Origin: Nitrosopumilaceae archaeon
GTDB taxonomy: Archaea; Thermoproteota; Nitrososphaeria; Nitrososphaerales; Nitrosopumilaceae
Direction of reading: 5' to 3'
Length of the DNA: 64,000 nucleotides
NCBI GenBank assembly: GCA_965214835.1
Contig: CBDCCK010000002.1
Location: 1,312,001 to 1,376,000, forward strand
In this document: positions 59,415 through 64,000 of the stretch, piece after piece
Position numbering within the stretch: the first letter of the stretch is position 1
Layout: the number at the start of each line of letters is the position of its first letter
The notes under the pieces: generated by a model
The model's input: only the letters and a program-made list of their open reading frames with translations
Database searches by the model: none
Told to the model about the DNA's origin: nothing
Position numbers and translations under genes: made by a program

Positions 59415-59488
59415 GGGCCCGTAACTCAGCTTGGTAGAGTGACCGACTCATAATCGGTGAGCCAAGGGATCGAAGCCCTTCGGGCCCA
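59415..59488 (+). tRNA. tRNA with CAT anticodon, probably tRNA-Ile2
   Basis: GGGCCCG/CGGGCCC acceptor stem like tRNA-Ile, loop CTCATAA; lacks initiator features. Confidence 0.88.
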
Positions 59489-59766
59489 TCTGACTCATTC
59501 TCAAATCCGAGAATGAGAAGGCAAAAAAAGATGGAAAAGCGGACAAAAAAGGAAATTTCTTCAAAAAAGGTAGCAATGCAAAAGCAAAGGGGACGAGTCC
59601 CGAAAAAACGATGACGAGTACCGACAAGACTGCAAACAAAAAGGTACAAAGTCAGAGCCGCAAAAGGAACGCCGGCCAGCTCAAAAAAAAAAGACGATAA
59701 AGAATGCACCTAGTGGAACAAGAATAGCTACACAATCCTCAAGATGCCTGTTGGAAGATGACGACG
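59489..59766 (+). pseudogene. 5' stub of an integrase element homologous to 61127-61454
   Basis: Near-identical with indels from tctgactc.ttctcaaat to gttggaagatgacgacg. Confidence 0.9.
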
Positions 59767-60140
59767 GGCCGGTCTCTTCTGGGAATGTGGCGTATATGCG
59801 CCTCCACGGGATCGCGACATCGTTCATCTCCAGCAGCTTCTTGACCGGCTTGAAGTACCCGCCAAACGAGACTGGGTTGAGGTATTTGGGATGCTCAGGG
59901 GCAAGCCTGGTACGCTCAAGCAGCTTCGAGAGGCTCAGCATCAGGTCGCGCACCCATGCCGGATCCTCCCGGCCGTACTGTACAAGCTGCTCTGCGCGGC
60001 CCTCAAGGTCTCCCTGCAGTATGTCCTCAAATATACAACAGAGCACCTGATGCAGCGTGCGTGTGTACTTTTCGCGCGTCTCCTCTGTCTTGATCCCCTA
60101 GTTGAACAGGGCCCAGCGGGACCGCCTGTTCCACCAAGTC
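59767..60140 (-). pseudogene. N-terminal stub of a second, different putative integrase downstream of tRNA-Ala
   Basis: EQLVQYGREDPAWVRDLM...YFKPVKKLLEMNDVAIPWRRIYATFPE resembles thaumarchaeal integrase N-domains and parallels the GKEDPKRIEDML region of 61151..62755. Confidence 0.6.
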
Positions 60141-60204
60141 TTCTAGTGCAAGCTTCATCCCGGTTTACATGTTCCTAGAATGCATAAAAGGTGCAATATT
60201 GTAA

Positions 60205-61018: not shown

Positions 61019-61051
61019 ACTTAAATGACTGCGGACTAGTATCAGTCCTGT

Positions 61052-61126
61052 GGGCTCGTAGCTCAGCTTGGCTGGAGCGTTCGACTGATAATCGAAAGGT
61101 CATGAGTTCGAATCTCATCGGGCCCA
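61052..61126 (+). tRNA. tRNA-Ile(GAT)
   Basis: GGGCTCG/CGGGCCC, loop CTGATAA, GTTCGAAT. Confidence 0.95.
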
Positions 61127-61150
61127 TCTGACTCGTTCTCAAATCTGAGA

Positions 61151-62755
61151 ATGAGAAGGCAAAAAAAGAAAGAAAAACAGACAAAAAAAGAAATTTCTTC
61201 AAAAAAACACACCAATGCAAAAGCAAAGGGGACGAATCCGAAAAACAGGATGACGAGTCCCAAAAAAACAATGACGAGTACCGACAAGACTGCAAACAAA
61301 AAGGGTACAAAAAGTCAGAGCAGCACAAGGAGCACCAGCCAGCTCAAAGAAAATGAAAATAAAAAAATAAATAAGAAAAAGACGATAAAGAATGCACCTG
61401 GTGGAAGAAGAATAGCTACACAATCCTCAAGATGTCTGTTGGAAGATGACGACGTACGTCGGTGGTACGAAAACATGAAGAGATCCAGCCAGCTTAATGC
61501 CGCCGTACGCCTGAGGAGGCTTAATCTGTTCTGTTACAGGTTGAAGACAACGCCTGCAACCCTTGCCCGGACGGGAAAGGAGGATCCCAAAAGGATAGAG
61601 GACATGCTGATGGATCACGTATCCTGGATGGAATCACAGAATTTCTCTTCCGGATACATAGACGGCATGATAAAGTCAATCAAGGGATGGCTGGTCCACA
61701 ACCGAATAGAAATCAAAAGCAAGATAAAGATATCCAACATGGGAATTTGTCCCACGCTTGAAAAGGAAAAGGTGCCAGAGCAGGAGCAGCTGCACCAGAT
61801 GCTGGAAAACGGCAACGTGCGCCAGAGGGCAATATTGAGCCTCATGGCCTTTTCGGGAGTAAGGCCACAGGTACTGGGACTTGCCGACAGGAGTGACGGG
61901 CTATGTCTCAAGGATCTGCCCGAGCTTGTCATAGAGAATAAGGGAAAAAGAGTCAGATTCACAAACATGCCCACAATGGTGGTGGTCCGACAGTCCCTGA
62001 GCAAGACCAGGAACAAGTACGTGACGTTTTTGATAGAGGAGGGGTGCCAGCACCTGCTGAAATATCTCGAACACAGGATATCTGCCGGGGAAAAACTCTG
62101 TCCGGACTCTCCTGTCATAACGCTTGAGAGGCAAAACTCACGCAAAAGACGCAGGGAGGATCCGGATGTCAAGACATTCGTGGTCACAGCATCCATATCC
62201 CGTACGGCAAAAAAAGCGATGAAGCCGATAGTAGATTCAAGGCCATACACGCTGCGATCCTACTTTGACACCCAGTTACTGCTTGCCGAAAGCCATGGCT
62301 GCATGGCAGATGCCTATCGGGTGTTCTTTATGGGGCACAAGGGGGACATCGAGGCAAGATACACGGTAAACAAGGGCCGTCTTACAGAGCATATGAGAGA
62401 GGACATGCGCAGGGCATATGAGCAGAGCGGACTGTTTCTCTCCACTGACCCTGACAAGACGGATGAAAAGCACAAAAAAGACATGCTTTGTAAGCTATGG
62501 CGCAAGCAGGCAAAGATGTATGGAATCAATCCTGACAACATAATCAATTCAAAGCCGGATGCCCCACAGCCCAATGCTGCAGACAAGCCAAAAGAGTCGG
62601 CTACGGTACCAGGCAATGACGAACCGTCCGAATGCCGGATCATAGGGAGCGATGAGGAACTGGTGTACTATAGCTCAAACGGTTGGGAGATTGTAAAGGA
62701 GCTAAGCGACGGGCGATTCCTCATGCGCAGGTCTGGCAAGGGTTCAGGCAGCTAA
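61151..62755 (+). CDS. Tyrosine recombinase/integrase of a tRNA-integrated element (true start uncertain; Lys-rich N-terminus)
   Basis: FSGVRP (Arg), LSKT (Lys), PYTLRSYF (YxxR in place of HxxR), FMGHKG, ARYT (Tyr); 25 bp downstream of tRNA-Ile. Confidence 0.9.
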   Translation: MRRQKKKEKQTKKEISSKKHTNAKAKGTNPKNRMTSPKKTMTSTDKTANKKGTKSQSSTRSTSQLKENENKKINKKKTIKNAPGGRRIATQSSRCLLEDDDVRRWYENMKRSSQLNAAVRLRRLNLFCYRLKTTPATLARTGKEDPKRIEDMLMDHVSWMESQNFSSGYIDGMIKSIKGWLVHNRIEIKSKIKISNMGICPTLEKEKVPEQEQLHQMLENGNVRQRAILSLMAFSGVRPQVLGLADRSDGLCLKDLPELVIENKGKRVRFTNMPTMVVVRQSLSKTRNKYVTFLIEEGCQHLLKYLEHRISAGEKLCPDSPVITLERQNSRKRRREDPDVKTFVVTASISRTAKKAMKPIVDSRPYTLRSYFDTQLLLAESHGCMADAYRVFFMGHKGDIEARYTVNKGRLTEHMREDMRRAYEQSGLFLSTDPDKTDEKHKKDMLCKLWRKQAKMYGINPDNIINSKPDAPQPNAADKPKESATVPGNDEPSECRIIGSDEELVYYSSNGWEIVKELSDGRFLMRRSGKGSGS

Positions 62756-62922
62756 CGATGAGCAAACCCCTCTGACTCCTGCCAAGTTCAGACCATCCCA
62801 CGTGTTTTCATGGTTTTGGATCATGTGCGTGGCAGCTTCCACGGTTTGTGAGCCCGCACGGACTTTCATGGCTTTTCAAATCCCCGTAATTCACAGGGTT
62901 TTCATCCCTGTGATCCCATGGG

Positions 62923-63022
62923 ACTTTCACTACTTTTCAAATCCATACTTTCCATACTTTCACTACTTTTCAAATCCATACTTTCCATACTTTCACTACT
63001 TTTCAAATCCATACTTTCACTA
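62923..63022. repeat. 33-bp tandem repeat x ~3
   Basis: Unit actttcactacttttcaaatccatactttccat. Confidence 0.9.
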
Positions 63023-63033
63023 TTTCTGATTCA

Positions 63034-63257
63034 ACATAGTGTAACTTTTCACTCCTCCAAAATGTACATAGTGTAACTTTTCACTCCTCCAAAATGTACA
63101 TAGTGTAACTTTTCACTCCTCCAAAATGTACATAGTGTAACTTTTCACTCCTCCAAAATGTACATAGTGTAACTTTTCACTCCTCCAAAATGTACATAGT
63201 GTAACTTTTCACTCCTCCAAAATGTACATAGTGTAACTTTTCACTCCTCCAAAATGT
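63034..63257. repeat. Perfect 32-bp tandem repeat x 7
   Basis: Unit acatagtgtaacttttcactcctccaaaatgt. Confidence 0.97.
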
Positions 63258-63673
63258 AGCTTTTAGCTGTTTTTGGTTCTACAAAATGTAGCTTTTAGCT
63301 GTTTTTGGTTCTACAAAATGTAGCTTTTAGCTGTTTTTGGTTCTACAAAATGTAGCTTTTAGCTGTTTTTGGTTCTACAAAATGTAGCTTTTAGCTGTTT
63401 TTGGTTCTACAAAATGTAGCTTTTAGCTGTTTTTGGTTCTACAAAATGTAGCTTTTAGCTGTTTTTGGTTCTACAAAATGTAGCTTTTAGCTGTTTTTGG
63501 TTCTACAAAATGTAGCTTTTAGCTGTTTTTGGTTCTACAAAATGTAGCTTTTAGCTGTTTTTGGTTCTACAAAATGTAGCTTTTAGCTGTTTTTGGTTCT
63601 ACAAAATGTAGCTTTTAGCTGTTTTTGGTTCTACAAAATGTAGCTTTTAGCTGTTTTTGGTTCTACAAAATGT
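63258..63673. repeat. Perfect 32-bp tandem repeat x 13
   Basis: Unit agcttttagctgtttttggttctacaaaatgt; followed by the palindrome atgtagctttt-cacccactc-aaaagctacat (63670-63700). Confidence 0.97.
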
Positions 63674-64000
63674 AGCTTTTCACCCACTCAAAAGCTACAT
63701 TCTCACTATTTTTCCCGCATGCAGTTTCCGGCACTCGGCCTCGAACCTCTCGCATTACTTCACTAGACACAAAAACGAGACCAGCCAAGTCTCCTCCGGA
63801 TACCCTTCCGGGTCTCCCATCCACCGTACACGTCAGGCCCCCTCCGGGGCCTGAAACCAAACTCCCCCACAAAGGTCTTGAACGTCACATGTCGGACAGG
63901 CCGGATCAGAAATGTCAAAGTCATGTGTGGTTACCAAAAAAACCAAACCATAAACTCCCGGGCCCCCAGCGGGGTTCCTGATCCCCGGCAATCTTCTGGG

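Follow-up and report, generated by a model that had tools for sequence, protein, structure and literature searches.

Tandem repeat arrays behind a tRNA-integrated integrase in a Nitrosopumilaceae archaeon as a probable multi-specificity origin of transfer on a defence island

The window analysed here is a stretch of 64,000 nucleotides from a Nitrosopumilaceae archaeon (G000:C2:1312001-1376000, where G000 is the source genome and G326, G033 and similar labels denote other genomes compared). Near its end, a tyrosine integrase gene beside a tRNA is followed by three tandem repeat arrays. These arrays are probably the specificity part of a multi-specificity origin of transfer (oriT) on a hitch-hiking defence island. 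In the mechanism proposed, a non-conjugative island would acquire its oriT from integrative conjugative elements (ICEs), whose putative relaxase is a VirD4-type coupling ATPase fused to a winged helix and a PD-(D/E)XK nuclease. A small AbrB-like protein would bind element-specific repeat words before its own promoter, as their co-variation suggests, and dock through its C-terminal helix on the nuclease domain, as modelled. Docking would place the nuclease at a YTCGCA motif which lies 50-60 bp or so past the repeats, and there the DNA would be cut and passed to the pump. The island would excise by its own integrase and be transferred in trans by helper elements. One motif of the island is preceded by words of at least two AbrB types, and 1.1 kb further on lies a second cassette, of a third type, which would open the island to mobilisation by several helpers. 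Copy numbers would drift through slippage or unequal recombination.

Tandem Repeats Finder recovered the three arrays described in an earlier note on this DNA (a 33-bp unit about three times, one 32-bp unit seven times and another 13 times), with copies 100% identical in each. The 33-bp array of 2.9 copies (62923-63018) begins 168 bp past the integrase stop codon, and is followed by 32-bp array A with 7.0 copies (63034-63258) and 32-bp array B with 13.5 copies (63250-63680), the last bearing one TGTAGCTTTT half-site per unit. No strand is assigned to the arrays or to the perfect palindrome which closes the block (63669-63701), whose 12-bp arms flank a 9-nt spacer as the note had it. The note's description of the arrays as consecutive holds for the gapless A/B junction, but not for the step from the 33-mer to A, where 15 bp intervene. 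Its half-site, once per unit in both A and B, was found as 21 TGTARCTTTT sites between 63040 and 63671, phased at 32 bp within each array. Array B begins 23 bp past the last A site, and the phase is therefore broken at the junction. Unit A is also a tight palindrome, AAAATGTACA-N3-TGTAACTTTT. Coding repeats were ruled out, 32 not being a multiple of 3, and the 33-mer was rejected as a minus-strand repeat of 11 residues since no conserved gene contains it. With identical units and no spacers, the block failed the test for a CRISPR array, and Rfam gave no match at E<=1 over the 2.9 kb containing the arrays. A palindrome scan of metagenome contigs returned 114 stretches; each of the 80 listed holds one site only, and these are apparently chance occurrences.

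The arrays are genuine, and their length varies. Within the same genome, a sibling element carries the same three units after a 96% identical integrase (C2:658544), and an element at the same tRNA in G326 carries them after an integrase 95% identical in amino acid sequence, its array B being interrupted by an insertion sequence (IS). Full units of the 33-mer, A and B number 3/7/13 in the window element, 4/2/3 in the sibling and 5/4/2 in G326. The earlier note had suggested looking for arrays behind homologues of the integrase, and had named an assembly loop artefact as a possible undoing of its claim; because the two other elements carry the same units in other numbers, the arrays are not such a loop. 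In contigs from four other public runs the B-B junction is present in two, and depth is greater over the arrays than over the integrase, exact copy numbers not being readable. A 33-bp array of roughly 25 copies lies elsewhere in G326 (L102, G326:C1:1217749-1219718) and is also split by an IS; together with the IS in array B, this indicates that the arrays attract insertions. Further palindromic word arrays, with periods of 39-156 bp, occur at C2:34819-36130 in the source genome, and since a weak primase-helicase match lies at C2:39970 they may be replication iterons.

Taken alone, the arrays are a variable-length instance of a family-wide cassette, and their interest lies in what they lead to. 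About 50 bp past the last palindrome, on the plus strand, lies a conserved motif, CTCGCATTA, with an A-tract (63749-63782), a candidate for the cleavage region of oriT. It is followed by a hairpin-rich block of about 170 bp, also on the plus strand, which starts at 63950-64000 and continues past the window. The block has 13 matches in the genome, and motif and block occur together 12 times, after differing repeat words. Most of these cassettes hold a small AbrB/MazE-fold gene (nine copies; Pfam MazE_antitoxin PF04014) which runs outward from the words; past this gene come the last 45 or so codons of a larger, VirD4-like gene. Behind integrases from two unrelated families, as many as four cassettes follow one another. 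The words go with the type of AbrB gene: type-1 genes are accompanied by A-like units, type-2 genes by GGYGCCAAA words and, in two G326 cassettes (L102 and L103), a third, distinct type by pure 33-mer arrays, the 33-bp word being found there alone. Array A shares a 23-bp core with the arrays beside type-1 genes, whilst its 9-bp spacer is not shared. From the window's first cassette the AbrB gene has been lost, and the 33-mer, A and B are joined before one motif. About 1.1 kb on, past the window, follows a second cassette with a frameshifted type-2 AbrB-like gene, other words, a motif at C2:1376896 and the block; a VirD4 3' stub lies at C2:1376232-1376366. The block was rejected as a structured RNA, having no Rfam match and covariation not above that of shuffles (77/500 reach its score), and is seen only in G000 and G326, not being found in 300 other genomes of the family. 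Tandem repeats of 43 bp lie upstream of type-3 cassettes in the source genome (C2:2044900-2045200 and 3202900), and are probably the words of a further, lost AbrB type.

The VirD4 stub derives from a VirD4-like protein of 1,045-1,081 residues (TraG-D_C), whose parent elements carry TFIIB, ParB and prepilin peptidase and are the thaumarchaeal ICEs of PMC6563490. In the source genome the C-terminal domain of about 200 residues is encoded at C2:2743788-2744390. The C-terminal 200 residues were found at 28 loci and in 40 of the 401 genomes of the class, all within the family of the window; a four-row profile of this domain matched 39/223 family genomes, and was not found with that query in any of 177 other genomes of the class. 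In a set of 58 loci, 45 of them distinct, profile matches to AbrB were sought next to VirD4, and in 30 of the 45 such a match converges on the VirD4 3' end. YTCGCA lies within 450 bp upstream of AbrB on one strand in 26 of these 30 loci and on the other strand in none, against a mean of 4.8 and a maximum of 10 of 30 in 200 shuffles; the motif was picked by eye from the same loci and the loci are kin, so that these counts and the co-variation figures which follow are inflated. Between the AbrB TATA box and the motif most loci have their own direct repeats, some of them long tandem arrays. Across 24 loci (one duplicate and five stubs being dropped), the promoter-side words track AbrB (partial r 0.51) but show no such relation to the winged helix of VirD4 (-0.10), and the motif-side DNA tracks the winged helix (0.49) over AbrB (0.26), though it lies farther from the winged helix. 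One G326 locus (L105) has a full-length C-terminal match followed in turn by type-1 AbrB, an array of A-like units, the motif and the block seen in the window. The words, motif and block of the island match those beside this full VirD4 gene, and may be an oriT. The source genome itself has one full VirD4 gene as against 12 cassettes of motif and block.

The C-terminal domain of VirD4 was modelled with a predicted local distance difference test (pLDDT) score of 93. In structure comparisons of the model, residues 1-84 match winged helices (Z up to 11.4), and the remainder matches PD-(D/E)XK nucleases: AF1548 (Z 9.2, root-mean-square deviation 3.1, 101 residues aligned), PaqCI (8.8) and NucS (8.6). 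The nuclease D, E and E are kept in 114/119, 126/130 and 125/131 representatives, respectively, and D..E-x-E in about 96%. Predicted fold and motif together show the layout of MOBC relaxases, a winged helix followed by a PD-(D/E)XK nuclease. Sequence searches of solved structures returned only winged-helix or chance matches for the domain, and Replic_Relax is not among the 25 families listed for 22 of its members. As there is no Replic_Relax membership, the claim is limited to a domain which would work like MOBC, not one which is MOBC.

The domain also appears in archaeal plasmids for which no relaxase has been reported. Among 72,556 plasmids it matched only pHVE14 and pSOG1, weakly (E 0.04 and 0.1). 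A 22-row profile built only from Nitrosopumilaceae was then applied to the VirD4 proteins of six plasmids, out of 68 records matched, and scored 59 bits for pNOB8, 59 for pHVE14, 50 for pAH1, 50 for pSOG1 and 38 for pT33-3, with reversed controls below 0; the haloarchaeal pNVE500 VirD4 is without the domain by this profile. Nine invariant residues are present in all five matching proteins. A broader profile including relatives of the plasmid proteins was left out of the evidence. In four Sulfolobales plasmids a convergent small gene and a repeat region lie in the matching place. After the conserved repeats of these plasmids (L260, L261, L264 and L265) come several hundred bases of strongly pyrimidine-biased, low-complexity DNA.

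Modelling of the genome's own AbrB/VirD4 pair as a complex gave a score of 0.84, the best of three controls reaching 0.02. The mark used is reached by 116/157 solved and 2/215 mismatched pairs, a calibration which is rough here, with our own alignments as input. The runs have at least 5% shared contacts and a partner pLDDT of at least 84, and the modelled contact lies between the AbrB C-terminal helix (61-75) and the nuclease domain. The model supports binding of AbrB to the nuclease domain of VirD4, and the contact fits recruitment and inhibition alike.

The island which bears the arrays appears to have no transfer machinery of its own. It is inserted at a tRNA-Ile(GAT) gene on the plus strand (61051-61128), whose 3' end supplies a 25-bp attL core (61104-61128, plus strand) repeated exactly at G000:C2:1410728-1410752; the two copies lie 37,624 bp apart, which defines an island of 37,624 bp and supplies the attR that the earlier note proposed to look for beyond 64 kb. 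The integrase (61151-62755, plus strand, 534 residues) was called from its open reading frame (ORF), the ESM Atlas and conserved residues. The note's reading of it as a tRNA-integrated tyrosine integrase is upheld by a score of 0.98 to Phage_integrase clusters in the ESM Atlas, by the att repeat and by R238, K285, R369, H396 and Y404, kept in at least 97% of 40 homologues; there was no match of its own in Pfam, PHROGs or NCBIfam. Its true start codon may lie further downstream, as the N-terminus is lysine-rich and poorly conserved. A scan of 22 island proteins shows a cargo of defence and DNA-modification genes: DndB/C/D/E with a cysteine desulfurase, AIPR, HNH, a ResIII helicase, a Cap4-nuclease/MC4/SMC trio, Ubl/JAB/ThiF and PemK. 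Neither a relaxase, coupling protein or mating pore nor any other transfer or replication gene was found in the ORF list and by Pfam in these 22 proteins, a search which did not take in every small ORF, and a VirD4 profile matched only a 45-residue stub. Along G000:C2:1378800-1410450 the cargo comprises a full Dnd set, the Cap4/MC4/SMC trio (Lamassu-like), a Ubl/JAB/ThiF operon, a PemK pair and a second cysteine desulfurase.

The same island is found in G326, a host whose nuo DNA is 77% identical to that of G000. Besides the integrase, the Dnd genes are 98.8% identical over 2,470 nt, and the two genomes share a 15.3-kb stretch of integrase plus cassettes at 99.9% identity. The near-identity of the island across these two hosts is the one observation to bear on its putative transfer in trans by a helper. 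A longer, AT-rich form of the motif was found in 64 of the 401 genomes of the class; most single matches are near control level, and multi-copy genomes alone are informative. It lies within about 1.1 kb of a VirD4 C-terminal match at 7/8 sites in G413, 3/4 in G198 and 2/3 in G033. Eight further sites were considered. Three of them, in G198, G033 and G133, are without VirD4 but lie no more than 5 kb from both an AbrB-like and an integrase-like gene (the integrases having a PF00589 match in two cases and being judged by eye in G033), and one of these carries two motifs in tandem and methylase cargo. Of the others, one has integrase and motif only, one has the motif alone, one is linked to VirD4, and two, inside ORFs, were set aside as chance.

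Besides the inflated motif counts, several points weigh against the arrays being part of an oriT. Fifteen of the 45 VirD4-nuclease loci have no adjoining AbrB match (two show a divergent AbrB-like gene by eye), and YTCGCA lies within 1.5 kb in only three of the 15, which are mostly without a cassette. The only full VirD4 gene of G000 is split by an IS, with the motif side lost, and several AbrB copies are frameshifted; many cassettes may therefore be dead. Pfam Replic_Relax (PF13814) matched in 0/5 genomes at E<=1, and in the ESM Atlas this MOBC family appears at rank 14 only, with 0.87. One of the three complex-model runs gave 0.00. The four Sulfolobales plasmids have a different, non-AbrB-like small gene and no YTCGCA in the matching place. 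Finally, the 15.3-kb shared stretch has an IS-like sequence at its end; transposition may have moved it, or it may stem from a mixed assembly.

Among other explanations, it is unlikely that repeats and motif are an iteron-type origin which starts replication of the excised circle with an initiator from the element or a helper. Phased repeats of 32-33 bp do resemble iterons, the fused nuclease could do both jobs by nick-started replication, and the equivalent, syntenic repeat region of Sulfolobus was published as a putative replication origin on Z-curve, GC skew and repeats (PMC4390865), which counts against an oriT as well. The cassette is, however, tied to a coupling protein, and in a conjugative element of G033 a primase-helicase, accompanied by a repeat cluster of its own, lies some 13 kb from the AbrB cassette. 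That primase-helicase has no match in the island, where the Rep or primase-helicase gene that the earlier note would have sought beyond 64 kb was not seen among the ORFs, though a helper might supply one in trans.

Equally doubtful is the idea that the words are operators only, with AbrB repressing its own promoter and restraining the fused nuclease as an antitoxin would, and with the arrays as passive remnants grown by slippage. The words start right beside the AbrB TATA box, the protein is MazE-like, the modelled contact places its C-terminal helix on the nuclease, array copy numbers vary freely, and the first cassette of the window has no AbrB gene. This leaves unexplained, however, why a strand-specific motif is kept beyond unrelated words, why the motif side co-varies with the VirD4 domain, and why different cassette types are stacked on islands of two unrelated integrases. 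A centromere of an actin-type (ParMRC) partition system, with the AbrB-like protein as adaptor, is improbable. An actin-like gene (MreB_Mbl, ALP_N) does lie upstream of VirD4 in G000, G003, G254 and G377, but this query did not detect it in G198 or G413, both genomes with several loci of AbrB and motif, there is none in the island, and a conserved distal motif would be unexpected. Least probable, and largely refuted, is that the adjacent integrase multiplied its own recombination sites, or that the arrays are an assembly loop. The palindromes around a 9-nt spacer, the position directly behind the integrase and the identical copies would suit these readings, but half-sites are absent from the 300 bp around attL and attR and from the 1.5 kb around 9/11 integrase genes tested in the genome, the words adjoin VirD4 genes of conjugative elements, and the same units recur in two other elements and in other runs. 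Of the earlier note's reading, the cis-acting array of the integrated element, taken as a protein-binding one, is supported and the recombinase sites are not, with iterons and centromeres standing as rivals. The conserved motif at 63749, the AbrB-like partner and the connection with conjugation were beyond what the note had to go on.

As an oriT, the cassette has several known counterparts. In MOBC relaxases such as TraX of pAD1 and MobC of CloDF13, a winged helix precedes a PD-(D/E)XK nuclease, TraX binds direct repeats 70-120 bp from nic, and the partner is a VirD4-type coupling protein (PMC12857230); the arrangement here is alike in its domains, its partner and its direct repeats, which are separated from a conserved site by some tens of bases. 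It differs in that the coupling ATPase carries the domain at its end as a fusion, without a Replic_Relax match, and that the repeats track a separate AbrB-like protein instead of the winged helix. Swappable specificity factors and oriT-only hitch-hikers are already known in bacteria. In the oriT mimics of the staphylococcal pWBG749 family a small accessory protein, SmpO, sets subtype specificity (PMC8136818), and oriT-only genomic islands (iOriT) include integrative carriers rich in defence genes near oriT (bioRxiv 10.64898/2026.01.13.699239); in both, elements without transfer genes bear oriT copies. Both are bacterial only, and 'archaea' does not occur in the iOriT preprint. In the island, unlike these systems, the putative specificity sites form long tandem arrays, with several types in series ahead of one motif, and cassettes have been captured entire with their own AbrB gene.

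Within archaea, the island and its parents resemble the ICEs and cryptic integrated elements of Thaumarchaeota, with tRNA integration by a tyrosine integrase and parent elements bearing VirD4, TFIIB, ParB and prepilin peptidase; that study found no relaxase candidate, and 'oriT' and 'AbrB' do not occur in its main text (PMC6563490). 'Section B' of the Sulfolobus conjugative plasmids likewise combines a VirD4-like gene, coding for the same nuclease domain, with a convergent small gene and a repeat-rich non-coding region, although the small gene is not AbrB-like, the motif differs and the region is called a putative replication origin (PMC4390865). By published accounts, no relaxase has been recognised in archaeal conjugative elements (PMC12857230, a 2025 review; PMC6563490; PMC9905601), and this has led to the idea of another route of DNA transfer in archaea. 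Our literature search, which covered listings and passages, found no archaeal relaxase or AbrB-type relaxosome factor; texts outside it could hold part of this.

The fusion of VirD4 to a nuclease is a candidate for the long-missing enzyme which starts archaeal conjugation, and the finding supplies a specific domain with its catalytic residues, together with a partner protein and a DNA site. A broader proposal, tentative and a little short of an even chance, is that conjugation in Nitrosopumilaceae, Sulfolobales and Thermococcales is started by a fused coupling ATPase and relaxase with a restriction-enzyme-like active site. Its oriT would be the repeat region behind a small convergent gene; the AbrB fold would be a swappable specificity adaptor in ammonia-oxidising archaea, where defence islands would build composite arrays for several helpers. 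Since plasmids for which genetics is established (pNOB8 and pT33-3) carry the domain, the question can be addressed by point mutation. If correct, the proposal would explain how integrase-only islands with phosphorothioation and other defence genes move between ammonia-oxidising archaea, and might provide a mobilisation tool for this group, which is without genetics.

Two minor observations concern the surroundings of these elements. Upstream of VirD4, the 5' region of the actin-like gene overlaps a tRNA-Asp called by ARAGORN (G000:C2:2748229-2749192); no att duplicate was found for it, and the call may be false or a scar. In the window, at 59415-60178 behind a tRNA-Met, a 5' fragment of a second copy of the integrase meets head-on a piece of an integrase from the other family (80% identical to C2:2048521), and this is the scar of two elements.

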